From positions 19,431-83,430 of the IMG/VR virus record IMGVR_UViG_2920292642_000002: a stretch of 64,000 nt of DNA; one strand, written 5' to 3'. The notes under the pieces were generated by a model. The model did not search any database and had not been told where the DNA came from. It saw nothing but the letters and a program-made list of their open reading frames with translations. The DNA comes from a virus (lineage: Duplodnaviria > Heunggongvirae > Uroviricota > Caudoviricetes). Below are positions 23,118-49,927 of this stretch, piece after piece. The translations under genes and the position numbers were made by a program. Numbering within the stretch: the stretch's first letter is position 1; each line of letters opens with the position of its first letter.

Positions 23118-23131
23118 ACTCCCCTGAGCAA

Positions 23132-23816: not shown

Positions 23817-24099
23817 TAACGACTCCCTGTCCCCTTGGTTTGTTGTTGCTGCGGTTCTCCGCAGACGATTACCTCACCCAAGGTCAGACCTTATCTGAAA
23901 TATGGCATCATGGGTATAACTCGTGCGTTAAGGAGGCTGGAAATTAACGGACGAAATCATAAGTCATTATGTCGCATAATTCGTCGGCTTTTAAGCCGGG
24001 TGGGTGCACCATCTAGGGTGCTTTCTGAAGGCGGGCAAGCGACTCATACGTGTACGCATGAAAAAGCCCCGACCGCTATCGGCCGGGGCTCTGTACTCA

Positions 24100-24417
24100 T
24101 CACATTTTGTCGAAATCGACAGCGTCATTGACCGGGATTAGAAGCTCTTCGAGATCGAGCATCACGTCCTCGTACTTCTTGATGAAGGCCTTGGTCACCT
24201 GCACGTCCGGGAGCGCGACGCTGTTGGGCTGGGCGTAGAGGGTGCCGAGCCCATCGACGTAAGCATCCTTGTTGACCTGCCTGACGCGGAGGGTCGTGTC
24301 ACCCTTCGGGCGCTCATGCTTGAACCAGTTCCAGAATGCCTTGTCGACATCCTCGGCCTTGCCCCACGAATTTCCTCCGACCACGATAAAGTGGTTGAGC
24401 GGCTGTTGCTCACTCAT
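24100..24417 (-). CDS. hypothetical protein (105 aa)
   Basis: ORF track; followed by hairpin plus U-tract at 24059-24092. Confidence 0.5.
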   Translation of the reverse strand: MSEQQPLNHFIVVGGNSWGKAEDVDKAFWNWFKHERPKGDTTLRVRQVNKDAYVDGLGTLYAQPNSVALPDVQVTKAFIKKYEDVMLDLEELLIPVNDAVDFDKM

Positions 24418-25106
24418 GTTGACACTCCTATAAGGTTTTCAAAGAACATTCCGCCTCATTGGCAGCATCTATATCATAGCATATCTGGTTGATATTGCAA
24501 CAACTTTGTTCTTTGTAAGAATACTTGCGAGACAAGACTAGGTTGAGTGCAGACTAACTTTGAATACTACTGCAAACACGAAAAAGGCCCGGTGGGAGAC
24601 GGGCCTTGATGGTTAGGGGTTGAGTGCAGAGACTAACATCGCAGGAATGATGACGATCTGGAGGAGAGCGGCTGGTCTTGATCCGCAGACCTCTCCCGAG
24701 GTCCCAACCGTTTTCGAGACGGTGCCGGCGCGCCTGTCCGGTTCACTCTCCATAACTGGTCCGAGGGGAGAGAATTTGCACTCCCACAGTCTAAGACGGC
24801 CGCTTTACAGGCGGTTAGGCTCACTCGTGCCCAGCCCTCGGATGCGCGATCGCGTATAAAGCGAGTTTATCCGGAATCGCGTATAAATGGCGGAAGGCGG
24901 TGGCCCTGATCCACTAACCCGTGCGGGTCTCATCCGTTTAGCAAACGGAGCCGGCCCGAGCCGGTTCACCTTCCAGAAATGAAATGGAGGAGACGGAGAG
25001 CAGGCCAGTATCGCTCGCGCTCGATTACGGGCGCGCCGGCCTGTCTCCTAGCCCTCTTACTCGCGCCATCCTATCGAGCCAACAGGACCGCTTCGGCAGG
25101 GCATCT

Positions 25107-25192
25107 TGGCGGAGAGCGGAGAACTCGAATCCCACACCTTGCGGTGCGCTTCGCCTTCCAAGCGGGCCGGGAACCTATCCCGTTCACTCTCC
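25107..25192 (-). tRNA. tRNA-Ser(GGA), class II
   Basis: manual fold: acceptor GGAGAGU/GCUCUCC, long variable arm, loop UUGGAAG, T-loop TTCGAGT, CCA encoded. Confidence 0.5.
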
Positions 25193-25196
25193 ATAC

Positions 25197-25272
25197 TGGT
25201 CCCAGCGGCAGGATTCGAACCTGCGACCTCTCCCTTATGAGGGGAAAGCACTACCGCCGTGCTCCACTGGGT
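25197..25272 (-). tRNA. tRNA-Met(CAT) (elongator or Ile-lysidine type)
   Basis: manual fold: T-arm GCAGG-TTCGAAT-CCTGC, anticodon loop CTCATAA, CCA encoded. Confidence 0.6.
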
Positions 25273-25748
25273 TAATCGCGTCGGACCACCTGAATGGGGC
25301 CGTCCGACAGAATGTCGTGCTTGATGCAGACCTCGACGGCGCGCTCGGCCGTCGCGCCCATCTCCAGAGCACCCACGGCGATCATGTCGCCGGAGCCGAA
25401 GACGTGCCATTCGCTCTCGACCTCGTAAGGTGGATCGTCCCCCTCGAAGCGGATGCAGACGCCGTCCGGCTTGATCACGAAGCCGGTGCAGTTGTCGTCC
25501 TTCCCAGTCGGCTCGATCCGAGGACTGCTGTACTCCAGATTCTGGAGGAACTTGGGGAAGTTGTCCGAGCGGCACCAGCGGATGAACTTGGCGACGTAGG
25601 GCGCTTCGCCGGTCCCACCGACGAGGTAGGCTTCACCATCGACATCGACGCGAGCGATCTTCTCGGCGTGGCCGAGCACGTTCCAGTTGCGTCGGATCAA
25701 CTGAGAATCCGACGCAAGGACACCGTCACGATAGACGAGGACAGTCAT
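25272..25748 (-). CDS. HslV-like N-terminal-nucleophile peptidase (proteasome beta-subunit family)
   Basis: MTVLVYRDG N-terminus (Thr2) and GSGDMIAVGALEMGATAERAVEV similar to HslV. Confidence 0.5.
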   Translation of the reverse strand: MTVLVYRDGVLASDSQLIRRNWNVLGHAEKIARVDVDGEAYLVGGTGEAPYVAKFIRWCRSDNFPKFLQNLEYSSPRIEPTGKDDNCTGFVIKPDGVCIRFEGDDPPYEVESEWHVFGSGDMIAVGALEMGATAERAVEVCIKHDILSDGPIQVVRRD

Positions 25749-26131
25749 CAGTAGCGCGCCGCGCCGAGCGAACGGGAAGGCGCAGCGCCCAGACCGGTCT
25801 CGGTGGACTTCTTGCCCTTCTTCTTGTTGTCGTCGAAGAACTTGTCGAGCGACTGGACCTGCACCGCCTTGACGATCAGGCGAACGATCGCGACCGGGTA
25901 GGTATTGGCCGAGGCCGAAACATCTCCGAAAGTGGCGATCGACGACTCGGTGTCGCCATTGCCGATCTTCCCGCCGACATCCCCCTTTCCGAGGATCGAA
26001 TTGACGGCCGCAGCCGCCTTGGTCACGTCGGTGAGGTCGGTGCCGAGGAGATTGTTCGCTGCTGCGAGCGCCGCGTCCTCGTCGTTGAGCTTGCTGATTT
26101 CGACCAGCTTCTCGAAGTCGTTTCTGTCCAT
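25748..26131 (-). CDS. hypothetical protein (127 aa)
   Basis: ORF track. Confidence 0.45.
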   Translation of the reverse strand: MDRNDFEKLVEISKLNDEDAALAAANNLLGTDLTDVTKAAAAVNSILGKGDVGGKIGNGDTESSIATFGDVSASANTYPVAIVRLIVKAVQVQSLDKFFDDNKKKGKKSTETGLGAAPSRSLGAARY

Positions 26132-26203
26132 GCCCGGAACTCCCTTGTGGTTAGGCTTGCGGGATTCCGTTTAGGGGTTCTTTACGGCAGTGTCAAGAAA
26201 AAC

Positions 26204-26277
26204 TGGATGCCCTGCCACGACTCGAACGTGGACTCATCGCTTCAAAGGCGCGCGTCCTACCTTTAGACGACAGGGCA
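26204..26277 (-). tRNA. tRNA-Gln(TTG)-like; weak anticodon stem
   Basis: manual fold: acceptor TGCCCTG/CAGGGCA, T-arm CCACG-TTCGAGT-CGTGG, loop CTTTGAA, CCA encoded. Confidence 0.5.
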
Positions 26278-26287
26278 GGAGTGAGGG

Positions 26288-26360
26288 TGGCTCGGCAGGT
26301 ACGGGTCGAACGTACATCGGCTGATTCAGAGTCAGCGTGCTTACCATTAGCGACTGCCGA
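26288..26360 (-). tRNA. tRNA-Gln(CTG)
   Basis: manual fold: anticodon arm GCTGA-CTCTGAA-TCAGC, T-arm GTACG-TTCGACC-CGTAC, CCA encoded. Confidence 0.6.
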
Positions 26361-26366
26361 ATAAAC

Positions 26367-26443
26367 TGGTGCCAAGGGGAAGTTTCGAGCTTCCGACCTC
26401 CGGGGTTTCAATCCGGCGCTCTAACCATCTGAGCTACCAAGGC
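26367..26443 (-). tRNA. tRNA-Phe(GAA)-like; U-U mismatches in acceptor stem
   Basis: manual fold: D-arm GCTC-AGATGGTTA-GAGC, loop TTGAAAC, T-loop CTCGAAA, CCA encoded. Confidence 0.5.
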
Positions 26444-26451
26444 ATAAAAAT

Positions 26452-26537
26452 TGGCTCGCGAGGGAGGGATCGAACCTCCGCCCCCTTCGGGGTCCACCGG
26501 TTAACAGCCGGGAACATTACCACTCTGCCACTCGCAA
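26452..26537 (-). tRNA. class II (long variable arm) tRNA with anticodon loop CTGTTAA (reads GTT/Asn-like; one base from Tyr GTA)
   Basis: manual fold: variable arm CCCCGAAGGGGG, T-arm GGAGG-TTCGATC-CCTCC, acceptor starts UU. Confidence 0.45.
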
Positions 26538-26546
26538 TCATAACAC

Positions 26547-26634
26547 TGGAGAACCGGGTGGGGATCGAACCCACGGTGGGCTTTCGCCATCGGATTAAAA
26601 GTCCGCGCCCTTCGACCAACTTGGATACCGGTTC
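26547..26634 (-). tRNA. class II scaffold tRNA with Lys anticodon TTT
   Basis: manual fold 88 nt: acceptor GAACCGG/CCGGTTC, variable arm GGCGAAAGCC, loop CTTTTAA, T-arm GTGGG-TTCGATC-CCCAC. Confidence 0.45.
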
Positions 26635-26640
26635 ACGATC

Positions 26641-26715
26641 TGGAGCCCTGCTCGGGGACCGCACCCGCTTCTACCGCTTACAAGGCGGCTGCTTCACTCT
26701 CAAAGCTTTCAGGGC
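26641..26715 (-). tRNA. tRNA-Thr(TGT)-like; non-canonical T-loop TGCGGTC
   Basis: manual fold: D-arm GCTT-TGAGAGTG-AAGC, anticodon arm GCCGC-CTTGTAA-GCGGT. Confidence 0.5.
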
Positions 26716-26721
26716 ATTGTC

Positions 26722-26796
26722 TGGAGCCTCGGTCGGGAACTGCACCCGCTTCTGACCGGTACGAACGGCCTGCTTCACTCGCAAAGCTTTCGAGGC
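26722..26796 (-). tRNA. tRNA-Thr(CGT)-like; non-canonical T-loop TGCAGTT
   Basis: paralog of previous unit; anticodon arm GGCCG-TTCGTAC-CGGTC. Confidence 0.5.
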
Positions 26797-26807
26797 ATAA
26801 TAAATAA

Positions 26808-26895
26808 TGGAGTACCCGGCTGGATTCGAACCAGCGGTGTGCTTTCGCAGGCGGATTAAGAGTCCGACGCCATCGACCAACTCGGCCACGGGTAC
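26808..26895 (-). tRNA. class II scaffold tRNA with Lys anticodon CTT
   Basis: manual fold 88 nt: D-arm GCC-GAGTTGGTCGAT-GGC (Ser-like), loop CTCTTAA, variable arm TGCGAAAGCA, T-arm GCTGG-TTCGAAT-CCAGC. Confidence 0.45.
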
Positions 26896-26901
26896 ATTAG
26901 C

Positions 26902-26975
26902 TGGAGCCGACACGTGGAATTGAACCACGGCTCCGTCCTTACCACGGACGGCGTCTACCACTGACATATATCGGC
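26902..26975 (-). tRNA. tRNA-Thr(GGT)
   Basis: manual fold: anticodon arm CGTCC-GTGGTAA-GGACG, T-arm CGTGG-TTCAATT-CCACG. Confidence 0.6.
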
Positions 26976-27060
26976 AAAATTTAACTGTCTCGATTAATCG
27001 AGCCGCAACTTGTCCTTGCTACAACCGCTGTGCTGATCACAACACCACGAGGCAACAGAC

Positions 27061-27243
27061 ATGATGAAACTGCTGAAGCGCTTCCAGAGCGATGAGTCTG
27101 GAGCAACTGCAATCGAATACGGCCTGATCGCTGCTTTGATCGCGCTGGCGATCGTCGTCGGCGCTGGCGCACTCGGCGAGAACCTGAACGCCAAGTTTCA
27201 GGCAATCAGTGACCAGTTGGCGGGTACGCCGGAGGGAGAATAG
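27061..27243 (+). CDS. flp: Flp/Fap-family type IVb (Tad) pilin precursor (60 aa)
   Basis: prepilin signature KRFQSDESGATAIEYGLIAALIALAIVV matching the Flp motif; own terminator follows. Confidence 0.75.
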   Translation: MMKLLKRFQSDESGATAIEYGLIAALIALAIVVGAGALGENLNAKFQAISDQLAGTPEGE

Positions 27244-27282
27244 AGTTCCTTGTCCGCGTTACAGCAACGACAAGCAACTGAC

Positions 27283-27310
27283 CGCCCTCCGGGGCGGTTT
27301 TTTTTTTTTG
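27283..27310 (+). terminator. rho-independent terminator of flp-like gene
   Basis: CCGCCCTCCGGGGCGG hairpin followed by T11. Confidence 0.65.
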
Positions 27311-27386
27311 GTGGAGACGGTGAGAATCGAACTCACAACAGCCTGCTTGCAAGGCGGGCTCGCTAACCCTTAGAACATGCGTCCCC
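27309..27386 (-). tRNA. tRNA-like, probably Ala(TGC); D-arm unclear
   Basis: T-arm GTGAG-TTCGATT-CTCAC, acceptor GGGGACG/CGTCTCC, loop CTTGCAA. Confidence 0.4.
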
Positions 27387-27563
27387 AAACTCTGAAAAAT
27401 GATCCGGCAGGCGGGCGAGTGTCCCCGCGTCATCTCCCCGGCTAGACAGCACCGAGGTTTTGCAGCCACGCCTTGTCTAAGGGCGGGTCGCTATGTCCGG
27501 AAGGTCACGTTATTCCACGCCAGACCATCCGCTGCTCGTCGCGTTCTGAGCTACTGCCGAAAC

Positions 27564-27640
27564 TGGACCTTCCGGCTGGGATCGAACCAGCGCCCTCCAG
27601 CTTCGGAGGCCGGCGCTCTTGTCCGCTGAGCTACGGAAGG
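27564..27640 (-). tRNA. tRNA-Arg(CCG)
   Basis: manual fold: anticodon arm CCGGC-CTCCGAA-GCTGG? with T-arm GCTGG-TTCGATC-CCAGC, acceptor CCTTCCG/CGGAAGG. Confidence 0.55.
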
Positions 27641-27643
27641 AAT

Positions 27644-27718
27644 TGGAGCGGGTAGCGAGGGTCGAACTCGCGCCTCTAGGCTGGCAACCTAGTGCTCTAC
27701 CAACTGAGCTATACCTGC
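27644..27718 (-). tRNA. tRNA-Gly(GCC)
   Basis: manual fold: anticodon arm CTAGG-TTGCCAG-CCTAG, D-arm GCTC-AGTTGGTA-GAGC, T-arm GCGAG-TTCGACC-CTCGC. Confidence 0.6.
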
Positions 27719-27905
27719 AATTTCGCGGGGTGGGGCTCAGGTCATCACTCCTGTCCCCTGAGCGGGTGATGATCCGGTTTGGGGCCGGTCCCTCTCCCCC
27801 TGCTCGGAGAGCCCGAAGGCTCAATCCTTGGAAACTCTCGACAGGGGTCACCTGTCGCTAGGCAAGGCTCTGAAGGTTGACGAGACCTTCGCCCTTGCGT
27901 GCCTA

Positions 27906-27983
27906 TGGCCTCCCCGGAGAGATTCGAACTCCCGACACGGGAGGTAGAAGCTCCCTGCTCTAGGTCCACTGAGCTACGGAGAG
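27906..27983 (-). tRNA. tRNA-Arg(TCT)
   Basis: manual fold: anticodon arm GGGAG-CTTCTAC-CTCCC, T-arm GGGAG-TTCGAAT-CTCTC. Confidence 0.55.
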
Positions 27984-28431
27984 GAGATCGCTTTTGGAGG
28001 GAGGCCAGCAGGCCATCGTTAGATGGAGTGTCAACACAACGGAGTCGCAAGACTTGCCGAAGCTGCCGACCTCCCGCCAAAGGCGATCTAGGTGCCGAAA
28101 GCGTGAGACTACCGCTTTCGATGACGACCTTCCCGCATTATCCGACGCCTTGCGAGCGTGGTTCTCGGGATGTCCACGCCGAGCATATTGCTATGTCTCG
28201 ACGTATTCGTCAATGCCGCCTTTTTTAGCGCGTGGCGTTTCGCGCGTCGCTGCGTGCTATTCGGCGTCTCGTCGACCGTGAGCCTTGCGGGCTCTTCGCG
28301 GCTGCTACACCGCTACGATCTCTTCCTCACCGACACCCTCCAGCTTGCGACCTTCAGGTGACCCAGTTCCCCGCAGGGCTGGGCATTAGGCATCTTTCAC
28401 ACGCAACCGGGACAGGCTTTGCGTTTTGTTA

Positions 28432-28506
28432 TCGTGAGGCCGGATTTGAACCGGCGACCGATGGCTTAGAGGGCCATTGCGCTACCAACTGCGCTACTCG
28501 CAACCC
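28432..28506 (-). tRNA. tRNA-like (anticodon loop CCTCTAA, TCT with C33; no encoded CCA) - possible pseudo-tRNA
   Basis: T-arm GCCGG-TTCAAAT-CCGGC, D-arm GCGC-AGTTGGTA-GCGC, acceptor with mismatch. Confidence 0.35.
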
Positions 28507-29061
28507 ACCGAGACGTGCTGCCCCAGTTGCTCCAAGCCCTTTTGGGACCCAGAATACAACACGCCTGCTGCTACCTTTCGCGCTGCTAACGCTACTCGAT
28601 CATGCTTCGAGATCACGGGTCATTTCAGCCCGAGACCTTGCCACATTGCCAGACGCCCTCGGCCGCTAAGCCTCGAACCTTCTGACTACCCTTCATCATC
28701 GGCCATCGATCAGTTTGCGTGCCGGGCGCGCTTTGCGAGCGCTTGAGGGCCACCATCGGCTACCCTCTTATCCAACCTTGCGGGTCGGACCCTGCCTGAT
28801 CTTCGGGCCTAGCCCACCTTCCGGTAAGCCGGGTGTCCCCGTGACTGGGCTTGCATGGCTGGACGCGGTTACCCGCGTGGAGGTTTATGGGAAACCCTCC
28901 TTTGGGCCGGTTGCCCGGCTTACCCTGACGACGCCATGCCGCCAAACTCTGCTCCGGTTCTCGTCGCCGATCGCCGTCGCCTTGTTGTCCTCTAACTACT
29001 TCACGACTGCGCCGCCCGTCAAGCATTAATTTGCAATCGTGTTAAGATTTTTTCGACATAC

Positions 29062-29141
29062 TGGAGCGCACGGCAGGGGTCGAACCTGCATCTTCCTCCA
29101 TTACCTTACTCTCGGTTCGTAGCCGAGGGGGTTACGTGCGC
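29062..29141 (-). tRNA. tRNA-Arg(ACG)-like with aberrant architecture (no recognisable D-arm, 21-nt insertion after anticodon arm)
   Basis: perfect acceptor GCGCACG/CGTGCGC, anticodon arm CTCGG-CTACGAA-CCGAG identical to E. coli tRNA-Arg ACG, T-arm GCAGG-TTCGACC-CCTGC. Confidence 0.4.
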
Positions 29142-29146
29142 ATAAA

Positions 29147-29222
29147 TGGCGAGCCATAAGGGAGTCGAACCCTCCTTCTCCGATCGACAGTCGGAGCCCT
29201 TCACCACGACGGGAAATGGCCC
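29147..29222 (-). tRNA. tRNA-Asp(GTC)
   Basis: manual fold: anticodon arm TCCGA-CTGTCGA-TCGGA, T-arm GAGGG-TTCGACT-CCCTT, CCA encoded. Confidence 0.6.
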
Positions 29223-29230
29223 ATTGAAAA

Positions 29231-29305
29231 TGGAACTGGGAGCCCGGCTCGAACGGGCGATTCCGGGGACACAACCCGGCCGGTTACCTCTACCGTCATC
29301 CCAGC
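29231..29305 (-). tRNA. tRNA-His(GTG)
   Basis: manual fold: anticodon arm CCGGG-TTGTGTC-CCCGG, T-arm GCCCG-TTCGAGC-CGGGC. Confidence 0.6.
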
Positions 29306-29313
29306 ATAGTGTT

Positions 29314-29388
29314 TGGAGCGGACTGCCGGGATCGAACCGGCCTTGGGAGATTGGAAGCCTCTTAACTCACCGAGAGCAAGCCCGCATG
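29314..29388 (-). tRNA. tRNA-like, probably Gly(TCC); short D-arm
   Basis: T-arm GCCGG-TTCGATC-CCGGC, acceptor GCGGGCT/AGTCCGC, loop CTTCCAA. Confidence 0.4.
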
Positions 29389-29400
29389 TCTGGTACGCCT

Positions 29401-29482
29401 AGCAGGACTTGAACCTGCACGCCGAAGCACGGGCATCTCAGTCCCGCGTGTCTACCTTTCCACCATAGGCGCATGTTTGTTT
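29401..29482 (-). tRNA. tRNA-Leu(GAG), class II
   Basis: loop CTGAGAT, variable hairpin TGCTTCGGCGT, T-arm GCAGG-TTCAAGT-CCTGC. Confidence 0.5.
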
Positions 29483-29621
29483 GGCGGGGCCGAACACCTG
29501 TCGACCCGATCCGGACGCGATCCCGGACCCTGCACGATTACCCTCTCGCCGATCGCGCGGCCGTTCATGACCGGCCTTTGTTCTCGGGCGATTTTGATGA
29601 AGAGAGTCGCCGTCGCCAATC

Positions 29622-29704
29622 TGGTGTCCGAGGGGAGACTTGAACTCCCACGCCGAAGCTCTGCGGTCTGAGCGCAGTGCGTCTTCCGATTCCGCCACTC
29701 GGAC
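29622..29704 (-). tRNA. tRNA-Leu(CAG), class II
   Basis: anticodon arm CTGCG-CTCAGAC-CGCAG, variable AGCTTCGGCGT, T-arm GGGAG-TTCAAGT-CTCCC. Confidence 0.6.
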
Positions 29705-29710
29705 ATGTCT

Positions 29711-29820
29711 GGTGGAGTGTGACCGGATTTTTACCGGAGCCCATAGGGACAGGTGTACGGCCTGTTCGGGATAGGCAGTCCCGCTCGCAGACCTCTAGCG
29801 GTCCGCTTAATCACAACTCC
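29711..29820 (-). ncRNA. unresolved 110-nt tRNA-like RNA (acceptor-like ends GGAGTTGTG...CACACTCCACCA, multiple internal hairpins; no canonical T-loop)
   Basis: encoded CCA tail and terminal helix but atypical internal structure. Confidence 0.3.
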
Positions 29821-29825
29821 ATAGA

Positions 29826-29904
29826 TGGTGCCTCGCCCCGGATTCGAACCGGGAGGATGTCGCCGGGTTTGAGCCGACCGCGTCTTCCGTTCCGCCAGCA
29901 AGGC
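29826..29904 (-). tRNA. tRNA-Leu(CAA)
   Basis: anticodon arm GTCGG-CTCAAAC-CCGGC, T-arm CCCGG-TTCGAAT-CCGGG. Confidence 0.55.
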
Positions 29905-29960
29905 ATTGATACGTTTAGAGGTATAGAGCGCGCGGCTCTATACGTCTAAAGGTATCAGAT

Positions 29961-30035
29961 CGTGGCAAAGGCTGAGAGATTCGAACTCCCGCCGCAGGGT
30001 TTTGGAGACCCGCATGCTACCGCTACAACAAGCCG
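29961..30035 (-). tRNA. tRNA-Trp(CCA)-like; two mismatches in acceptor stem
   Basis: anticodon loop CTCCAAA as in E. coli tRNA-Trp, T-arm GGGAG-TTCGAAT-CTCTC. Confidence 0.45.
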
Positions 30036-30556
30036 ATCCACGAGCCCCGGCCGGACGGATTCCCGGCCGGGGTTTCTGATGTCATCATTCCTACGATGTC
30101 AAAGAACGGGACCCTAACTAAGGTCCAAATGCAAGAAGGCCCCGGAGATTTCTCGCCGGGGCCTTCTGATCGATCCGAGGATGGTACTGTTAGAATACAG
30201 TACCTCCGTCGCCAGAAGACCCCATGATACCGAACAGATTGGTATCAAGCAGACGCAAGGAGGCGCGGCGCGACTGCGCCGTCCCACTCGTCATTTGATG
30301 CCAATACTGCTGTTTCACAGCGGTCTTCCTTGTTCACGTCCCTCAGGAGAGCGGATATCCGCTGGTCGACTCCGAGGGCTCATTCCGAAATTCTGTTGCG
30401 GTCCCCATACGGTGAACCTGAGAGCGGCGTCAGCCAAGCTCAGCGCGAATGATGAACAATCCTGAGACGTTTGTCAAGCAAGAAAATCATCCGTCTCAAG
30501 AAAAAGTTTACATCGGAAAAGGTTGACGATCGAGTCACGAGGGCTAGATGTCGGGC

Positions 30557-30676
30557 TGTTACGAAGTCGGAGCATGGTGCTCTGATCATTTTTGAGAGGG
30601 AGCAATCTCAAGAGTGAAAGTGGACTCTTCCCAGACTTGACCATGAGTCTAGCCCGCTTCGGCGGGCTTCTTTTTT
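30557..30676 (+). ncRNA. candidate small RNA (promoter-like TTGACG-N17-TAGATG upstream, strong terminator at 3' end)
   Basis: no credible ORF; hairpin GCCCGCTTCGGCGGGC followed by TTCTTTTTT at 30653-30676. Confidence 0.25.
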
Positions 30677-30679
30677 GGA

Positions 30680-30754
30680 TGGCAGCCCATGACGGTTTCG
30701 ATCCGTCTTCTCCTGATTGAGAATCAGGTGTCCTATCCACTAGACGAATGGGCC
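30680..30754 (-). tRNA. tRNA-Glu(CTC); T-loop ATCGAAA (A54)
   Basis: anticodon arm CCTGA-TTCTCAA-TCAGG, D-arm GTC-TAGTGGATAG-GAC, CCA encoded. Confidence 0.55.
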
Positions 30755-30758
30755 AAAT

Positions 30759-30837
30759 TGGTCGGGCGGACGGGGCTCGAACCCGCATCGCAACGCTTGA
30801 AAGGCGCGCCACCTAGTCCAGTTTAGAAGGACCGCCC
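30759..30837 (-). tRNA. tRNA-Glu(TTC)-like; weak anticodon stem
   Basis: perfect acceptor CGGGCGG/CCGCCCG, loop CTTTCAA, T-arm GCGGG-TTCGAGC-CCCGT. Confidence 0.5.
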
Positions 30838-30914
30838 GTGGTCCTCGACCGTGGTTTCGATCCACGTGCCTCCGGCGTGTCGTGCCGGCGCTCTCCCGAG
30901 TGAGCTAGTCGAGG
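30838..30914 (-). tRNA. tRNA-Val(GAC)-like with C33 (loop ACGACAC); abuts previous tRNA
   Basis: anticodon stem CCGGC/GCCGG, T-arm CGTGG-ATCGAAA-CCACG, acceptor CCTCGAC/GTCGAGG. Confidence 0.45.
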
Positions 30915-30915
30915 T

Positions 30916-30991
30916 TGGTTGACCCTGCCGGTTTCGATCCGGCTGCCTCCTGTGTGTAAGACAGGCGCTCTCCCGAGTGAGCTAAGGGTCT
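30916..30991 (-). tRNA. tRNA-Val(TAC); 1-72 mismatch
   Basis: anticodon arm CCTGT-CTTACAC-ACAGG, T-arm GCCGG-ATCGAAA-CCGGC. Confidence 0.55.
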
Positions 30992-30995
30992 GAAC

Positions 30996-31069
30996 TGGTT
31001 GTCCCACTGAGAATCGAACTCAGATCAACCGCTTATCAAGCGGACGCTCTACCGTTGAGCTATGGGACG
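30996..31069 (-). tRNA. tRNA-Ile(GAT); C1-A72 mismatch
   Basis: loop TTGATAA, D-arm GCTC-AACGGTA-GAGC, T-arm CTGAG-TTCGATT-CTCAG. Confidence 0.55.
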
Positions 31070-31110
31070 ACACCGGGCCGAGGCTTGCGCCCCGACCCGA
31101 TGGGGCTTGT

Positions 31111-31185
31111 TGGTCTGGGTGCGGAGTTCCGCCCTCCGGCATCCGGCTTCCAAGGCCGGTACTCTTCTGCACGAGCTTCACCCAG
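31111..31185 (-). tRNA. tRNA-Pro(TGG)-like with non-canonical D- and T-loops
   Basis: perfect acceptor CTGGGTG/CACCCAG, anticodon arm CCGGC-CTTGGAA-GCCGG, T-loop GGCGGAA. Confidence 0.4.
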
Positions 31186-31195
31186 TTATCAGGCA

Positions 31196-31240
31196 AAAAA
31201 GAAGGCCCGGTTTTCACCGGGCCTTTGAAGTTGCCAACAG
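31196..31240. terminator. bidirectional hairpin terminator
   Basis: GGCCCGGTTTTCACCGGGCC flanked by AAAAAAGAA and TTTGAAG. Confidence 0.5.
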
Positions 31241-31352
31241 AACTCTTGATTGGTTCAGTCGCGCAATACCTTCCGGCCCGATTCCTCGGTCGGTTCAATG
31301 ATCTCCACGACGGGGACGATCAGGTTGCGCACTGGTGTTCTCCTAACGAAAT

Positions 31353-31431
31353 TGGTTGCGGCGGCTGGATTTGAACCAGCGATCTTCTGGTTATGAACCA
31401 AACGAGATTGACCGGGCTTCTCTACACCGCA
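31353..31431 (-). tRNA. tRNA-Met(CAT) (second CAU tRNA; Met/Ile2 unresolved)
   Basis: loop TTCATAA, D-arm GAGA-AGCCCGGTCAA-TCTC, T-arm GCTGG-TTCAAAT-CCAGC, CCA encoded. Confidence 0.5.
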
Positions 31432-36344: not shown

Positions 36345-36783
36345 CGTGGCGCGGCAAGCGCCATTCAAGAAGCCAAAATACATCGACGAAGAGACGCCGA
36401 TGCTCTCGCGATGGATGGTCTTCGGCTTCCGGCCCGAGGATCAGCACAAGCCCTACGCACATCAACGCGTCGACGTGACCGATCCGAACGGCAGTGACAT
36501 CTTCACGAACGTCACCGGAAAGCAGGCAGACGCGATCCTAAAGGCGCGAAACGACTTCGTCGACGCGATCCTCAAGATCATCAATCATCGCGTTCCTGAG
36601 GCGTGGCGGGTTGGGATGCGGGTCGAGTATATCCGCCAAATCTCGTGGGGACCAAGTACCGGCGACAAGGGAACGATCGTCGAAGTCAACGGCGTGAACG
36701 ACTTCATCGTCATGCCCGACGAAAACGAGTCCCATCGGTTCTACACCACCACCGACGACGTGACGTGGTTGCCCGACGATTAA
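36328..36783 (+). CDS. hypothetical protein (151 aa)
   Basis: ORF track. Confidence 0.45.
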   Translation: MQLPIDVARQAPFKKPKYIDEETPMLSRWMVFGFRPEDQHKPYAHQRVDVTDPNGSDIFTNVTGKQADAILKARNDFVDAILKIINHRVPEAWRVGMRVEYIRQISWGPSTGDKGTIVEVNGVNDFIVMPDENESHRFYTTTDDVTWLPDD

Positions 36784-36858
36784 CCATGTCCAGTTTTTCT
36801 GTTTGATTTTGTCCAGAATCGGTGTAATTCTGTCTTCGTCAACACACGGAGATTACGC

Positions 36859-37801: not shown

Positions 37802-37881
37802 CGTTAACCACGTCCAGTTTTTCTGTTTGATTTTGTCCAGAATCACTGTAGATATGTGTACGTCAACACACGGAGAGACCA

Positions 37882-38469
37882 ATGACCAACGAACCGAACA
37901 TGCGCTCGATCGCGGACACCATCAACAAGGCGCAGGAAGGCTTGAGGGGCGTCCATGTGAATGCCGTCCCACGCATGTCAAAGCTGCCTGAAATCACGAT
38001 CAAGTGTGATTCCTTCGGATATACCTTCGAGCACGCACGATTCACCGCTAACTGGACGGAAGGGGACGCTCGTTTCCACGTCTGGATCAACAGCGACGGC
38101 GAAGTCGAAGAGACGATCCACAAGAATAGCATCGCGGACATGTGGATGGACACGCCGGACGGCCGTCGCGTGCACAATCCGGCGTATTATCCACATCGCA
38201 CGCTTGACCTCACTGCGAAGAAGAATCAGCCCATTCGCGAAGCGATCCTCGAACTCATCAAGGACGGTGAAGTTCTACGATCCCTTCACGCGGCTGCCAA
38301 GCAGAAAAAGGACGATGAGGAGGCAGCCAAGCAGTCTGCCTACGCCGAGAAGATGCGCAACGCGCTCCTGACCGAAGGCGCTACCCTCGGCGACGAGTTT
38401 GCGTCCTTGGTCAAGTCCCTGAGCGAGGAGCAGTTGCATACGCTCGCGAAGATAGTGCATTCAGCATGA
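37882..38469 (+). CDS. hypothetical protein (195 aa), own promoter/leader
   Basis: ORF track. Confidence 0.5.
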   Translation: MTNEPNMRSIADTINKAQEGLRGVHVNAVPRMSKLPEITIKCDSFGYTFEHARFTANWTEGDARFHVWINSDGEVEETIHKNSIADMWMDTPDGRRVHNPAYYPHRTLDLTAKKNQPIREAILELIKDGEVLRSLHAAAKQKKDDEEAAKQSAYAEKMRNALLTEGATLGDEFASLVKSLSEEQLHTLAKIVHSA

Positions 38470-38828
38470 GCATCAGGAACATCATCGCCGGCCTCTTCGG
38501 CTATGGCAAGGCGAGGGTGAATGTCGCCCTCGCCGACGCCTTCAAGAACTGGGAGCGGCCGGCTGATGCCGGCGAGCTTCCCGACGATCAGTTGCGCTAT
38601 ATCTACGACGCCAGCAAATGTCCCTACTGCAAGTCCAAGCATGGACTTTTCGAGGGTCCACGCGGCGGCGCGAGCGTCAACATGTTCTGCGGTGATCCGG
38701 ACTGCGACAGCCGATTCAACGTCGTCGACGGGAAGATTTGGGGCTTTATCCCGTGGGGCGAGTTCACCGGCCGCTGTCCTCCTGAGTTCATCGAGCAGCG
38801 CCGGAAGGAGATCGCCAATGTGGTATGA
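38466..38828 (+). CDS. zinc-finger protein (CPYC...CGDPDC)
   Basis: ORF track. Confidence 0.45.
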   Translation: MSIRNIIAGLFGYGKARVNVALADAFKNWERPADAGELPDDQLRYIYDASKCPYCKSKHGLFEGPRGGASVNMFCGDPDCDSRFNVVDGKIWGFIPWGEFTGRCPPEFIEQRRKEIANVV

Positions 38829-46091: not shown

Positions 46092-46566
46092 CCCGAAATG
46101 GGAGGTCTTCGCCACCGGTCTGGCGGACGGCCTCACCGTTCTCGATGCCTATGAGCAGGCCGGCTACCCGCGCTCGGCCTCCTCGGCGTCGCAGTTGAAG
46201 AACCGGCCTGAGCTTCAGTCGCGCGTGCAGGAACTGATCTACGAGAAGCAGAGCGCCGCCCGGCGTGAGTCCGAGAATGATCCCGACATCAACCCGCACG
46301 AACTCAACCGTGCATGGTTGATCACCACGCTGATGAAGAATGTCGAGATCGCCCAGAAGGCGCAGCAGATCGCACCGGCCAACAAGGCGGTCGAGATGCT
46401 GGCCGAGATCATCGGCTACTCGCTCAAGAACCGTGGCGGCAAGAACGCCAACGACGACGACCCCAACAAGGACGGCGAAGCGCCCGGCTTTGATTTCGAC
46501 AAGGCCAATGACGCCATCGGCCGGCTCATGGAAGTGCTGCCGGACGCACCGACCGAGGGTAGCTGA
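46075..46566 (+). CDS. terS: terminase small subunit
   Basis: N-terminal HTH-like region PKWEVFATGLADGLTVLDAYEQAGYP typical of phage small terminase family; immediately upstream of terL. Confidence 0.6.
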   Translation: MPVLSNPKWEVFATGLADGLTVLDAYEQAGYPRSASSASQLKNRPELQSRVQELIYEKQSAARRESENDPDINPHELNRAWLITTLMKNVEIAQKAQQIAPANKAVEMLAEIIGYSLKNRGGKNANDDDPNKDGEAPGFDFDKANDAIGRLMEVLPDAPTEGS

Positions 46567-49379
46567 TGGCCCGTCCCTACCCTTACGCGGATCGGGACCG
46601 GGTCTACGCGTTTCTCAAACAGGCCGAAGAGTTCGCCACTCTGGTCGAGAAGATCGCCGAAGGTCAGGCCGATCACAGTCCCGAGCTTCAGGGCGCGCTC
46701 GCCGCGCTCACCGGAGCCACCGACCTGCATCAGCAGCACAAGGCCGTCCAATACATGCTGGATCGTGCCCGCAAGGAGCACGAGCGCCGGCTGATCGAGG
46801 CCGCGCCGAACGACTTCACCGCCTATGTCGAAGTGATCAATCCGGAGGAGCCGTGCGCCTCGAAGCTGCACCGCTTCCTCGGCGAGACGCTGATGGAGAT
46901 GGAGGCCAATTCCGGCCTCAAGAAGGGCGTCTCGATGCCACCCGGCCACGCCAAGGACATGTGCGTGTCCACGCCTGTGATGTTGGCGGACGGCTCGATG
47001 AAGCCGCTCGGCGAGGTCCAGGTTGGCGACTTCGTCATCACCCACACCGGCAGCGCCCGCGAGGTTCTGGAGGTCCACGATCAGGGCAAGCGCCCGGTCA
47101 TGCGTATGCGCACCCTCTGCGGCCGTGAGCTTTTTCCACATCCCGAGCATCCGTTCCTGACGCCGGCCGGCTGGGTGCAGGCGCAATATCTGAAGCAGGG
47201 TGACGTACTGGCGCAGCAGCGCGAGTTCTCGATTCCCAACGGCTCCGGCCGGTCCCTCTACGATTTCATTCTGGCCGGCTACATGATGGCGGCTGGCATG
47301 GTGCGCGGCCGGCATTACAGCCGCGTCTTCACCGTCGACCGCACCTTCCGCACCGACGATCCCGAGATCATGGCCGATCTCATCGACACGGCCAAGCGAC
47401 TAGGATTCCGCGCGCGGATCGCCAAGAAGGGTAGCTACGGCAAGGAGATCGAGACCGCCCGGTTCGATGAGAAGTTCATCCACTGGCTGCGTGGCCAGCG
47501 CCTGAACGGCCTGCACCGCCATACCATGCGGGTCCCCGACTGGGTGTTCAAGGGTGGGCTGATCGAGATCGCCGCCTTTGTCGGCGCGATCTTCTCGATG
47601 GACGCCAGTCTGGTGCCGACCTCCCACAAGCAGAGCCTGAACGCCCGCAAGATGGTGATCCGGCTGCGCAACGCCGGATTGGTTGGTGACATGCAGCGGC
47701 TGCTCGCCCGCCTCGGCGCGCGCTCGGCACTCGATAAGCATCTGGTCAACAACTACAACTACGAGCCGACCGAGTTCTGGAGCCTGACGGTCTGGGACGC
47801 CGAGGATCAGTATTATCTCCAGCGCTCGATGCGCGTGCGTGGCGTCAACCAGCGCCTGTGGGCCGACCCGATCGTGCCGCGCGCCTTCTTCGACGGACGC
47901 TATGCCACCGACCGCATCATCGCGATCGACTATGACTGGGACGTGCGGGAGACCAAGTGCCTGACCGTCGACGAGGACCATTCCTTCCTCGCTGATGGCG
48001 TGGTGGTGCACAACTCCACCTATTGCTCGCGCCTGTTTCCGTCGTGGTGGATGGGCAAGCGCGAGAACAAGCGCTGGCTTCAGGCCGGCCACACCCAGCG
48101 TTTTGCCGAGAAGGAGTTTGGCAAGAAGACCCGCGACAACATCCTCGCCACGGCAGCCTATCAGAAGGTGTTTCCGGGCGTCGGGGTCAGCACCGCCTCG
48201 CAGGACGAGATCATCCTGACCAATGGCTGCGCCTACAACGTCAAGGGCGTCGGACAGGGCATCTCGGGTTACCGCTCGCACTTCAACAACGTCGACGACC
48301 CATACGCGACCCATGAGGACGCGATGAGCCCGACCATCCGCGAGAAGGTCTGGAACTGGTGGGCGAACGACTTCAGGACCCGTCGCCTGCCGGGCGCGGG
48401 CGAACTGATCATCGTGACGCGCTGGCACACCGACGACGTGGTCGGCCGTCTGGAGGAGATGATCAAGAAAGGCGAAATAGAACCATGGGAGTTTATTAAT
48501 CTACCCGCGTTTGCGGTAGAAGAAAACGATGTATTAAATCGCAAAATTGGTGACGTTTTGTGGCCGGAAGTATTCAAAAAAGAATTTCTTCTGGACATAA
48601 AAGGCACCAGTACGGAAGAAAACTGGTCCGCCCTGTACCAGTGTGCGCCAGTGTTGGAAAAGGGCAACATCCTCCAGCGTAACTGGATTAAATACTATAA
48701 ACAACTGCCGCAGCGTAGTATTCGCCCGGCTGGTACTGTGCAGGCCGTGAACCGGGCTCCCGTGGCCGATCCGCGCCTCGTACGGGTGGACCCTTTGAAA
48801 TTCAAAATCGGGGCCGAGGGACCCTCGGAATCGAAACCGGGGCCGGCCGATTCTGGAAATCAAAATTCGGTTTTTGCAATTCGAACCGTGGTTTCCGTCG
48901 ACACCGCCGAAACGGATTCGGCAAGGGCCGACCGCTCGGCGCTTCAGGTCTGGATTTATGGATCGGACCGCAACCACTATCTGGCGCATGCCTCGGTCGG
49001 CAAGTATCTGTTCCCCGACCTCGTCGAGGCGATCGAGACGACGGCGCTGGCATGGGGAGCCGATCTCGTGCTGATCGAGACCAAGGGCGCGGGTCTGCAA
49101 TACATTCAGGCGCGCACCGGCCACTCGCAGACGCCGATCATCGGTTTCAACCCGAAGAACATCGAGAAGTCGATGCGCTTTGACGGCACCATGGTGATGT
49201 GGCAGACCGGCACCGTGCTGCTGCCGGAGAAAGGGACATGGCTGGCCGACTATGTCGACGAGCTTCTGAAGTTCCCGTCTGGGCGTTACGACGACCAAGT
49301 CGACGCGACCAGCCAGTATTTGCACTGGCACCGGATCGACGGCGGCTGGGATCGCGGCATGAAGAAGATCAAGGGCTGA
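46566..49379 (+). CDS. terL: terminase large subunit interrupted by a 351-aa LAGLIDADG intein
   Basis: N-extein ...MPPGHAKDM | CVSTPVMLADG...VVVHN | STYCS...; C-terminal nuclease/ATPase region typical of TerL. Confidence 0.8.
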   Translation: MARPYPYADRDRVYAFLKQAEEFATLVEKIAEGQADHSPELQGALAALTGATDLHQQHKAVQYMLDRARKEHERRLIEAAPNDFTAYVEVINPEEPCASKLHRFLGETLMEMEANSGLKKGVSMPPGHAKDMCVSTPVMLADGSMKPLGEVQVGDFVITHTGSAREVLEVHDQGKRPVMRMRTLCGRELFPHPEHPFLTPAGWVQAQYLKQGDVLAQQREFSIPNGSGRSLYDFILAGYMMAAGMVRGRHYSRVFTVDRTFRTDDPEIMADLIDTAKRLGFRARIAKKGSYGKEIETARFDEKFIHWLRGQRLNGLHRHTMRVPDWVFKGGLIEIAAFVGAIFSMDASLVPTSHKQSLNARKMVIRLRNAGLVGDMQRLLARLGARSALDKHLVNNYNYEPTEFWSLTVWDAEDQYYLQRSMRVRGVNQRLWADPIVPRAFFDGRYATDRIIAIDYDWDVRETKCLTVDEDHSFLADGVVVHNSTYCSRLFPSWWMGKRENKRWLQAGHTQRFAEKEFGKKTRDNILATAAYQKVFPGVGVSTASQDEIILTNGCAYNVKGVGQGISGYRSHFNNVDDPYATHEDAMSPTIREKVWNWWANDFRTRRLPGAGELIIVTRWHTDDVVGRLEEMIKKGEIEPWEFINLPAFAVEENDVLNRKIGDVLWPEVFKKEFLLDIKGTSTEENWSALYQCAPVLEKGNILQRNWIKYYKQLPQRSIRPAGTVQAVNRAPVADPRLVRVDPLKFKIGAEGPSESKPGPADSGNQNSVFAIRTVVSVDTAETDSARADRSALQVWIYGSDRNHYLAHASVGKYLFPDLVEAIETTALAWGADLVLIETKGAGLQYIQARTGHSQTPIIGFNPKNIEKSMRFDGTMVMWQTGTVLLPEKGTWLADYVDELLKFPSGRYDDQVDATSQYLHWHRIDGGWDRGMKKIKG
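46962..48014 (+). other. intein with double LAGLIDADG homing-endonuclease domain inside terL
   Basis: block A CVSTPVMLADG, block B HPEHPFLT, LAGLIDADG-like LYDFILAGYMMAAGMV and LIEIAAFVGAIFSMDASL, block G VVVHN + Ser. Confidence 0.75.
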
Positions 49380-49688
49380 GCGGCGTTAACCTTACCTGCA
49401 CAAGGTTAACGCCCGCGCCCGGCTCTGCACTCAACCCAGTTTCCCTAATGATTTCAAGGCTTTACGCCGGACTCCTACCAACTCCTAGAATGTACGAATT
49501 AGGAGTTGGGGAAAATTTGGATGATCATGGCCTCCAGATTTTGGATGAGCATGGTTTTGCATGAGGTCTGGCATGAGCATGGTCGAATTTTTGGATGGGG
49601 GAGAATTGGAACACGCGCCTGCGCGAGCGCGCGCCCGGATCGCTCAGATTTTCGGAAAACTTGAGTAAAATTTGAAACAAGCCCGCCG

Positions 49689-49845
49689 TTAACCATGCTC
49701 AGGTAAGGTTAACGCGCCTTGTTAACCATTCTCAGGTAAGGTTAACGGCCGGCGTTAACCATGCGGGAGTAAGGTTAACGCCGACCGCCTCCACCCAGCC
49801 CGCCTCGTTAACCCTACCCGAGTAAGGTTAACAACGCCAGCCCCG
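49689..49845. promoter_or_regulatory. cluster of four tandem GTTAACC-N10-GGTTAAC palindromes plus a half-site (operator-like array)
   Basis: perfect 7-bp inverted repeats with 10-bp spacer repeated at 49692, 49727, 49762, 49812; same element precedes every downstream cassette. Confidence 0.55.
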
Positions 49846-49927
49846 GCGTTAACCTTGCTGGCGATCGCCACTTGCATTTCGTGCGCAATGCATTATTCTG
49901 TATCAGTCAACGCAACAGGAAAGAAAA

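Follow-up and report, generated by a model that had tools for sequence, protein, structure and literature searches.

A conserved GTCAAC leader at the promoters of small phage genes, and its reverse complement in a hairpin next to a GOLLD RNA

The locus and the leader element

The stretch of DNA considered here (the window) comprises 64,000 nucleotides (nt) of a tailed phage (Caudoviricetes), corresponding to positions 19,431 to 83,430 of IMG/VR record IMGVR_UViG_2920292642_000002, and the element with which this account is concerned is a short leader that recurs in it just ahead of the start codons of many genes. Each copy consists of GTCAAC, a linker made up only of A and C apart from one purine (R) position, and the Shine-Dalgarno (SD) sequence GGAG, which is followed after 5-10 nt by the ATG. 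Copies precede the two paralogous loci at 36859 and 37882, a recombinase gene, a minus-strand gene and, most conspicuously, the units of a long array of small genes; the coordinates of these and of the other features discussed are collected in Table 1.

When GTCAACRCAACGGAG is searched for in the window with up to two mismatches allowed there are 19 matches, against 0.31 expected and with 19 reached in none of 100 shuffles, and the core GTCAACRCA is matched 26 times (0.96 expected). Twenty-five copies lie directly 5′ of start codons, 24 of them on the plus strand (6-13 nt before the ATG) and one on the minus strand. A first-pass annotation, made from the sequence alone, had proposed just such a GTCAAC…GGAG leader common to cassette genes, the recombinase and module-leading genes, and these counts bear it out, with some particulars amended. 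The 15-nt element said to precede the genes at 36859 and 37882 is indeed there, only as a 14-nt variant one base short of the consensus then given; the recombinase does have its copy, placed as in Table 1 rather than at about 8116; and the statement that every cassette gene has a leader is true of the first gene of each transcription unit, several array units holding one or two further genes without one. The segment described as duplicated upstream of the two paralogous loci is real, 36785-36821 and 37809-37845 being identical at 36 of 37 positions, with TTAA before each.

All 25 copies are oriented with their genes, and none stands before a structural gene, either in the window or in Mesorhizobium phage Cp1R7A-A1, the one close relative that the phage collection contains (75% nucleotide identity, confined to the terminase; 70% identity for the large terminase protein, TerL). 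To call the element a genome-wide signature, as was initially suggested, is too broad: it marks one promoter class, that of early-looking modules of small genes, and not all genes. The recombinase served by the leader at 8125 is a tyrosine recombinase of the Phage_integrase family, 218 amino acids (aa) long, consisting of the catalytic domain only and encoded 41 kb from the array; two tyrosine recombinases are known in this phage family.

Table 1 Features of the window; positions are numbered from its first letter, except where another genome is named.
Feature	Position	Strand	Remarks
Recombinase promoter	8089-8139	+	TTGACA 8089-8094; 17-nt spacer with GTCCAGAAT; TAATTC 8112-8117
Leader GTCAACACAACGGAG of recombinase	8125-8139	+	ATG 8147
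Leader GTCAACACGACGGAG	19608-19622	-	precedes 136-aa open reading frame (ORF) 19599-19189
Cp1R7A-A1 orthologue of the 136-aa-gene leader	51933 (Cp1R7A-A1)
tRNA cluster	23043-31431		26 genes (25 on minus); interrupted by two small ORFs, 25272-26131 minus, conserved in relatives
Conserved hairpin domain	27986-28090	-	11 nt after end of GOLLD model; 2-3 nt before tRNA-Arg (27983)
Anti-leader CUCCGUUGUGUUGAC	28030-28044	-	exact reverse complement of recombinase-type leader; antisense within tRNA cluster
GOLLD RNA (RF02032)	28100-28566	-	model positions 1-416; 205 bits against gathering threshold of 150, E = 3e-57
tRNA-Arg(tct) in GOLLD linker	28430-28504
TTAACCAT, CtrA half-site-like box upstream of promoter	36780-36787	+	from reading of the sequence
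Second GTCCAG	36788-36793	+
Predicted -35, TTGATT	36803-36808	+	17 nt upstream of -10
GTCCAGAAT box within promoter spacer	36811-36819	+	candidate operator
Predicted -10, AATTCT (or TAATTC, 36825-36830)	36826-36831	+	ends 6 nt before G of GTCAAC
Leader GTCAACACACGGAG, 14-nt variant	36838-36851	+	predicted +1 to +14; SD GGAG at 3′ end; ATG 36859
TTAACCAC, paralogous box	37804-37811	+	counterpart of TTAACCAT at 36780
Paralogous promoter	37827-37875	+	-35 TTGATT 37827-37832; GTCCAGAAT 37835-37843; -10 AGATAT 37850-37855
Leader GTCAACACACGGAG, paralogous copy	37862-37875	+	ATG 37882
Large terminase, intein-containing	46566-49379
Array, 22 leader copies	49906-63860	+	each after a sigma-70-like promoter, before first ATG of a small transcription unit
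G of GTCAAC in array, first half	49906, 50265, 50885, 51821, 52205, 53011, 53393, 53863, 54561, 55178, 55843	+
G of GTCAAC in array, second half	56492, 57361 (variant GTCAATGCAAC), 58682, 59495, 60326, 61218, 61730, 62204, 62673, 63241, 63846	+
TTGCAW inverted-repeat sites	51790-51815, 55150-55172, 61190-61212, 61700-61725, 62175-62200, 62640-62668

Promoters upstream of the leader

A sigma-70-like pair of -35 and -10 hexamers, spaced by 16-18 nt, lies upstream of all 25 sites. In a profile anchored on GTCAAC (25 sites in the window, 18 in Cp1R7A-A1 and 15 in the uncultured relative L266) there is a -10-like signal, tAt..T, at -12 to -7 and a TTg at about -35 to -30, the most informative block of all being GTCAAC itself, above both hexamers. 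A strict scan of the array for the sigma-70 consensus gives 11 matches where 4.5 would be expected, and in the five strict matches situated ahead of leaders the distance from the end of the match to the G of GTCAAC is always 6-7 nt. Because the hexamer pair ends at this distance, that G, or a base next to it, is the predicted +1, and one of the explanations offered in the first-pass annotation, namely a common transcription start and 5′ untranslated region (5′UTR), fits the geometry.

At least four promoter subclasses carry the leader, differing in their -35 and -10 hexamers and in the placement of GTCCAGAAT and of TTAACC (CtrA-type) boxes. The first has the form TGTCCAGA-N5-TTTACA-N16/17-TAnGGT; the second, TTGCAA...ATGCAATATTCT, contains an inverted repeat across the -35 and -10 regions; the third has TTGCAT, GTCCAGAAT in the spacer and a -10 of the TACAA type; and the fourth, TTGACA/TTGATT-GTCCAGAAT-TAATTC, comprises the three promoters outside the array. 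Since the leader is common to all four, it would act downstream of promoter-specific regulation. The inverted repeat of the second subclass, TTGCAW...ATGCAA(T)ATTCT, spans both hexamers and has a third TGCA midway; the TTGCAW type is found also in Cp1R7A-A1 (e.g. upstream of genes 011-020), and it suggests a dimeric regulator distinct from the factor that would recognise the GTCCAGA box described next.

GTCCAGA occurs 29 times on the plus strand, mostly at leader-bearing promoters, where it lies either inside the spacer or just upstream of the -35; examples of the longer GTCCAGA(AT) box are found at 8096, 36811, 37835, within 50218-57334 and elsewhere. This box is kept in the Cp1R7A-A1 orthologues and in the contig L260, and has CCTCGCAAAATG in its place in L266; it looks like a candidate operator of some lineage-specific regulator. 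The CtrA half-site-like sequence TTAACCAT is present 17 times in the window, nearly always adjoining a leader-bearing promoter, and there are four full TTAA-N7-TTAAC boxes (62125, 62595, 63162, 63767), as expected of the sequence of CtrA promoters. Binding of CtrA to such sites has been shown in Cp1R7A-A1 by electrophoretic mobility shift assay (PMC9437464), and a 123-bp region upstream of the gene Cp1R7AA1_019 binds CtrA and drives lacZ in C. crescentus in an approximately 2-fold CtrA-dependent manner (PMC9437464); that fragment contains the leader GTCAACGCAAACGGAG.

Some other identities for the leader were considered and set aside. A promoter for a phage single-subunit RNA polymerase is ruled out by the clear -35 and -10 hexamers of several subclasses that precede it. 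For a sigma-dependent pause or Q-loading site, inspection shows the leader to be without a -10-like hexamer and each unit to have its own terminator, and for extended pairing with the 3′ end of 16S rRNA it shows that only GGAG pairs. Finally, GTCAAC and GTTAAC would both fit a GTYRAC methylation or restriction signature, but their counts reflect only the known intergenic enrichment.

Conservation in relatives

The window derives from a large tRNA-rich phage that has 26 tRNA genes (23.0-31.4 kb) together with genes for replication and nucleotide metabolism; it is a siphophage related to phiCbK and is not T4-like. After Cp1R7A-A1, its next relatives are the phiCbK-like phages themselves, at about 32% TerL identity. 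Three proteins of the window are 100% identical to proteins encoded on a 391,276-bp contig of Pseudaminobacter sp. 19-2017, which is to say that the genome of a phiCbK-like, supposedly virulent, phage is found within, or assembled into, a bacterial contig; this could be a case of integration, of carriage as an episome or of misassembly.

A search of related phages for the same leader had been proposed at the outset, and it is present in Cp1R7A-A1 and in the uncultured relatives L260, L266 and L301. In Cp1R7A-A1 it stands at 13 array promoters and five others, among them the orthologues of the promoters of the recombinase and of the 136-aa gene. L260, which is Cp-like, has GTCAACACACGGAG; L301 (60% identity in the SPFH protein) has GTCAACACGGAG and GTCAACACAGGAG; and L266 (59% in TerL) has GTCAACAACGGAG, GTCAACAAGGAG and GTCAACAGGAG, at 15 array promoters. 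What is invariant across these relatives is GTCAAC at the predicted +1 and the SD, joined by 1-5 nt of A and C. Where orthologous promoters can be aligned, they agree in the -35, in the GTCCAGAAT/-10 block and in the leader, and have diverged in the discriminator and in the spacer from SD to ATG; because the leader is retained at orthologous promoters while its flanks diverge, it bears the mark of purifying selection rather than of recent duplication.

Further away the leader is lost from view. It is absent from phiCbK, which has long, GC-rich 5′UTRs, and from the contig L268 (50% in TerL), in which GTCAAC is lacking and another conserved leader, ..AACGGAGTCAC(G)CC-ATG, is found; judged from the genomes compared, then, the GTCAAC leader is specific to one lineage. 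L268 contains an equivalent array (5800-12700 of NCBI JBAMLG010008366.1), whose promoters, TTGAYT-N17-TAGnnT, are followed by (A)AACGGAGTCAC(G)CC-ATG, the conserved block there lying downstream of the SD; L268 seems to have arrived at the same design independently.

Architecture of the array

The array lies downstream of the terminase and matches the terminal-repeat region of Cp1R7A-A1, which is dense in CtrA boxes (PMC9437464). Its units follow a regular order: a GC hairpin with a run of T; a hairpin GCCGGCGTTAACC-N11-12-GGTTAAC; a GC-rich spacer; GTTAACC(A/T)TG; often TGTCCAGA; and after these the promoter, the leader and one to three small genes. Terminators on the plus strand, at least 12 of them, are found at the ends of such units. 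Integron cassettes lack promoters, carry a terminal attC site and are expressed from one Pc beside the integrase IntI; the units here do not fit that pattern, each having its own promoter, leader and terminator and the recombinase, a catalytic domain only, being 41 kb distant.

Several repeated sequences accompany the units. GTTAACC occurs 43 times on the plus strand, in the region 49385-49860 (with three tandem 33-bp units at 49683-49781) and in every array unit; the GTTAACC-N11-12-GGTTAAC hairpins come after each terminator and before each promoter, and overlap CtrA half-site motifs, most of them not being spaced as TTAA-N7-TTAAC. There is a perfect tandem repeat at 63530-63766 (38 bp × 6.2, CTGCACGCGATCGGCCGTCCTGCCGTCCAGAGGCGCGC), every unit of which contains a variant of the GTCCAGA box, GTCCAGAG. 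A full CtrA box and a leader-bearing promoter follow close behind, and the repeat may be an array of binding sites for a factor that recognises GTCCAGA. Immediately after the terminase, at the start of the array (49515-49600), a motif resembling TTTGGATGAKCATGG is repeated four or five times; it may indicate a packaging site or the limit of the terminal repeat.

Such an arrangement raises the question of whether the leader has any function of its own, as opposed to being the conserved edge of a mobile terminator/promoter cassette of the PeSL (promoter early stem-loop) kind, homogenised by recombination and supplying homology for the shuffling of small genes. Whole intergenic modules are certainly repeated, from terminator through the GTTAACC-N11-12-GGTTAAC hairpin, GTTAACC, TGTCCAGA and promoter to leader, with different genes between them, and when relatives are compared it is the gene content of the array that varies and the modules that persist. 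Against this, the leader is more conserved than the promoter to which it is attached and is common to subclasses with unrelated spacers; orthologous single-copy promoters well away from the array retain it where the bases around it have diverged; it persists across lineages at 59-70% TerL identity; and 15 nt is short for homologous recombination. Taken as a complete explanation a functionless edge is therefore improbable, but it can coexist, as an additional evolutionary role, with the reading preferred here, to which we now turn.

A probable common transcription start and 5′UTR

The element is probably the common transcription start and short 5′UTR of a regulon of host-polymerase (sigma-70-type) promoters, which serves small, probably early, genes together with a few module-leading genes. 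The observations that carry this reading are how many copies there are, their constant distance from promoter-like hexamers, and their conservation at orthologous promoters whose flanks have diverged; what it predicts is where transcription starts, the temporal class of the genes and a role of the leader in efficient translation. On this basis the element would form the first 11-15 nt of the mRNAs, with GTCAAC at +1 to +6 and a whole 5′UTR of 21-27 nt, so that some 25 functionally unrelated, probably early, genes would receive the same short, weakly structured, SD-bearing 5′ end, and the leader would be selected at the level of RNA. Predicted openness over the first 15 nt is 0.60, compared with 0.46 for random genomic 15-mers in the same mRNAs; together with the A/C-only linker, this modest gain would be in keeping with a leader maintained in an unstructured state for initiation led by the SD.

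Some considerations weigh on the other side. We infer both the +1 position and the “early” class from sequence; the predicted gain in openness is modest; and the leader is evolutionarily dispensable, given that L268 uses a different one and phiCbK has its long GC-rich 5′UTRs.

An mRNA 5′ end that is conserved, single-stranded and GGAG-containing, and that is shared by many unrelated, early-looking transcripts, might also be the target of a protein. T4 provides precedents, in that RegA binds early mRNAs where translation is initiated and RegB cleaves the GGAG of early SD regions, and one could imagine the leader being recognised on the mRNA by a phage translational repressor or endoribonuclease of some such kind. 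However, no candidate protein was found, and this proposal leaves unexplained the conserved reverse-complement copy to be described in the next section; it is accordingly rated as unlikely.

The reverse copy in the tRNA island

The tRNA cluster contains a GOLLD RNA, which on its score is a member of family RF02032; homologues scoring 193-198 bits are present in two further contigs, L262 (from a Mesorhizobium sp.) and L263 (a more distant Logan contig). GOLLD is found also in Cp1R7A-A1 (unannotated, ~38208-38672), in phiCbK-like phages and in several IMG/VR contigs. Just beyond the end of the GOLLD model in the window there is a hairpin domain, and in its centre lies the single exact reverse copy of the leader. 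Each genome has one such copy, which both in the window phage and in Cp1R7A-A1 is the exact complement of that phage's own recombinase leader. Pairing is possible over 15 of 15 positions with the recombinase leader, over 15 of 15 (including one G-U) with array leaders, and over 16 of 16 in Cp1R7A-A1, the U opposite the R position being able to pair with either A or G; complementarity of this extent is what would be looked for in a trans-acting antisense (anti-SD) RNA.

The predicted fold of the hairpin comprises a long outer stem, within which lie small inner hairpins and a mostly unpaired centre reading CUCCGUUGUGUUGACACUCC; its minimum free energy is -56 kcal/mol (z = -6.0), and its counterpart in Cp1R7A-A1 has z = -5.6. 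GOLLD, hairpin and central leader complement occur together also in Cp1R7A-A1 (38756), L262 and L263. Across these four versions the outer stem and the 3′ inner hairpin maintain their pairing with changed sequences, the central ~20 nt are nearly invariant, and the SD complement is retained in every one. This structural comparison rests on independent folds, alignment of the four hairpins with MAFFT and RNAalifold having misaligned the diverged stems. Spacing within the complement also corresponds to that of the leaders: the window has CUCC-GUUG in the hairpin and mostly CAAC-GGAG in its leaders, and Cp1R7A-A1 and L262 have CUCC-GUUUG in the hairpin, the leaders of Cp1R7A-A1 being mostly CAAAC-GGAG. 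In L263 the anti-leader is shortened to CUCCGUGUUGAC, which is complementary to leaders of the GTCACACGGAG type; the exact sequence, GTCAACACGGAG, occurs in L301, which is a different phage.

One might ask whether the copy at 28030 is simply an ordinary sense leader, serving either a small gene or a transcript that crosses GOLLD in antisense. There is in the window a TTG, 9 nt past the GGAG, that opens a frame of 75 codons. Yet neither in the window nor in Cp1R7A-A1 is there a -35/-10 pair, a GTCCAGA or a TTAACC box upstream; the frame is not conserved (Cp1R7A-A1 has a GTG at a spacing of 2, the frame in L262 is shifted and that in L263 has 3 codons), nor is any other conserved ORF to be found on the leader-sense strand opposite the hairpin in the window, Cp1R7A-A1, L262 or L263; and the other strand encodes a 205-bit GOLLD and the structure-conserved hairpin. 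This explanation is very improbable indeed.

The hairpin is oriented with GOLLD and the tRNAs and has no intervening terminator, which suggests that it may be transcribed with them. It has no family match in Rfam, lying outside the GOLLD model, and no partner for the anti-leader segment was found within GOLLD itself. Together with the lack of a conserved ORF, these negatives speak for reading the segment as non-coding and as acting in trans. Energies calculated for duplexes between the 5′UTRs and the whole GC-rich hairpin are uninformative, because random 28-mers already average -22.5 kcal/mol. A gene on the tRNA strand (24417-24100, minus) has the ribosome-binding site (RBS) GGAGTGTCAACATG at 24416-24428, with GTCAAC between SD and ATG; the 12-mer GGAGTGTCAACA is common to this RBS and the anti-leader site, and it is conserved in Cp1R7A-A1 (42495) and L262 (6933).

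Given the reverse copy at 28030, the leader may also be a common handle for an anti-leader RNA, and the first-pass idea of a recognition site for a phage-specific factor may therefore hold alongside the common start, with the difference that the candidate factor found is an RNA, the reverse-complement hairpin copy, and not a protein. In this scheme the anti-leader, 15-16 nt long and exactly complementary to the leader from its 5′ end to the SD, would lie within a hairpin fused to the 3′ end of GOLLD; being co-transcribed with the tRNA cluster, the hairpin could act on every leader-bearing mRNA simultaneously, by blocking or sequestering it. After expression of the tRNA/GOLLD operon, an exposed UGUGUUGAC seed would capture the 5′ ends of some 25 early mRNAs, and pairing would then spread across their SDs, resulting in silencing of the mRNAs or in their being tethered to a GOLLD assembly.

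That the common leader is the target of such a trans-acting anti-leader in the GOLLD tail is put forward tentatively, as a possibility that we regard as rather doubtful, because a number of findings limit its support. Leader and anti-leader are both known in two lineages only, L262 being a near-copy of Cp1R7A-A1; three promoters visible in the L263 locus are without GTCAAC; the CUCC part is predicted to be paired, leaving only ~10 nt (UGUGUUGACA) open, with probabilities of being unpaired of 0.42-0.68; and the GOLLD loci of phiCbK and of the IMG/VR phages examined end in a terminator, without such a tail. In addition, a DNA-binding protein would also explain a sequence shared in either orientation.

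This last alternative deserves to be spelled out: GTCAACRCAAC (+1 to +11) would be a DNA operator, bound by a phage or host protein that blocks or aids RNA polymerase in the manner of a stoperator or roadblock, and 28030 would be simply another site. The fixed position relative to the -10 is in keeping with this, a protein site can work in either orientation and hence accounts for the lone reverse copy, and the phage family does encode several helix-turn-helix and Ros/MucR-type regulators. But the site is asymmetric, with no dyad; linkers of 1-5 nt in L266 and L301 are hard to reconcile with a rigid site of 11-15 bp; the reverse copy occupies the unpaired middle of an RNA hairpin whose structure is conserved; and the adjoining CGGAG, the SD complement, is conserved there too, with phage-specific spacing, in four sequences, for which a protein that recognised only the GTCAAC core would have no need. 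An operator is thus an unlikely explanation, if slightly less so than the mRNA-binding protein considered earlier.

Searches were also made for wider occurrences of leader and anti-leader. The tails of six other GOLLD loci, and those of L263 and L282, were searched for complements upstream of nearby genes, with nothing notable within the short flanks. A scan of genome contigs for a GOLLD 5′ pattern gave about the 14 matches expected by chance, none with a GOLLD 3′ end; scans of IMG/VR with the 15-mer and 16-mer leaders, with TerL peptides and with two patterns combining a GOLLD end and the anti-leader gave single chance matches or nothing, so that by these scans the phage lineage is not represented there; and a metagenome scan with the SPFH protein adjoining the tRNA cluster gave only bacterial SPFH genes. 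Among the TerL relatives the P0151 contigs end at the terminase. Distant homologues of a 158-aa protein of the tRNA cluster, P0128 and P0137, proved to belong to unrelated phages. Two GOLLD-bearing IMG/VR contigs, L277 (~5963, minus) and L283 (~5412, minus), have as the first promoter after the GOLLD terminator TTTACA-N16-TAGGAT-N6-GTCAACGGAAGGAG-N9-ATG; this GTCAAC-type leader in an unrelated GOLLD phage is a single case and may be due to chance.

Significance

To our knowledge, host-polymerase promoters are not normally conserved downstream of +1, and an invariant leader on some 25 of them would therefore mark a regulon that can be read from sequence in the poorly known rhizobial phages. Compact and portable, the leader with its promoters might also be used as a module for gene expression in Mesorhizobium and its relatives. 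If the anti-leader acts as proposed, it would amount to a simple global shut-off of early genes by one RNA, that is, an RNA-based switch from early to late, and would provide a first functional handle on the GOLLD locus, which encodes a giant phage RNA of solved structure; it would further be expected that the GOLLD hairpin of an L266-type phage carries CUCCGUUGUUGAC, or a close variant, matching GTCAACAACGGAG. The leader itself is solid and moderately surprising, and it is the GOLLD-fused anti-leader that would be the surprising part to a specialist.

Comparison with known systems

The c4 RNA of P1 and P7 and the sar RNA of P22 are structured phage antisense RNAs that cover the RBS of their targets, c4 RNA being matured by RNase P. 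Like these, the hairpin described here exposes bases able to pair with the region of phage mRNA where ribosomes bind, and because its 3′ end abuts a tRNA, RNase P would define that end. Whereas c4 and sar each act on one target, the sequence that would be targeted here is common to some 25 mRNAs, and the hairpin is joined to a giant structured RNA. At the DNA level the nearest parallel is with the stoperators of Cluster A mycobacteriophages, which are repressor-binding sites in and between the genes of temperate phages; they too are present in many copies, asymmetric (13 bp in their case) and oriented with transcription, but the leader sites, unlike stoperators, are tied to a predicted +1 and an SD, and no repressor is known.

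As for GOLLD, the example in the window resembles the published family (PMC12286853) in being full-length, in having a tRNA in its linker and in lying in a phage tRNA island; binding of GOLLD to ribosomes in pull-downs is mentioned in that work, which describes no link to mRNA leaders (PMC12286853). The anti-leader hairpin lies beyond the Rfam model of the family. The promoters share with the CtrA promoters of phiCbK-like phages and Cp1R7A-A1 (PMC9437464) their phage group, their intergenic location and their TTAA-N7-TTAAC and TTAACCAT boxes; that study is concerned with the upstream CtrA boxes and makes no mention of GTCAAC, of a leader or of a Shine-Dalgarno sequence.

The PeSL cassettes of T4-like phages are modules of terminator and early promoter that recur in plastic regions between small variable genes, for the most part of unknown function; a part in modular shuffling has been proposed for them (PMC2839356, PMC4122927). 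The array repeats the same succession of terminator stem-loop and promoter between variable small ORFs. PeSLs, however, are defined by stem-loop and promoter, while the most conserved block here lies downstream of +1 and is found also at single-copy promoters outside the array.

Closest of all are the start-associated sequences (SAS) of Cluster K mycobacteriophages, a 13-bp asymmetric, SD-containing motif of consensus GGGATAGGAGCCC that precedes some 10-20 non-structural genes (PMC3203893). SAS copies have one orientation, belong to different gene families and are conserved across subclusters, and their authors left open whether the partner is a phage or host RNA or a protein; several Cluster K genomes carry, in addition, one unexplained copy on the opposite strand (PMC3203893). 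The leader is likewise an asymmetric, SD-containing repeat a few nt before the start codons of non-structural genes, in a single orientation, but it differs from SAS in sequence, in host phylum and in phage family. Moreover, SAS often stands at an RBS inside an operon, with no fixed relation to a promoter, whereas here the core precedes the SD and stands at the predicted +1; and the reverse SAS copy has not been placed in an RNA structure, whereas the reverse copy here is within a hairpin. The leader is thus an analogue of SAS and not a member of that group, and the lone reverse copy in Cluster K could be an instance of the same anti-leader principle.

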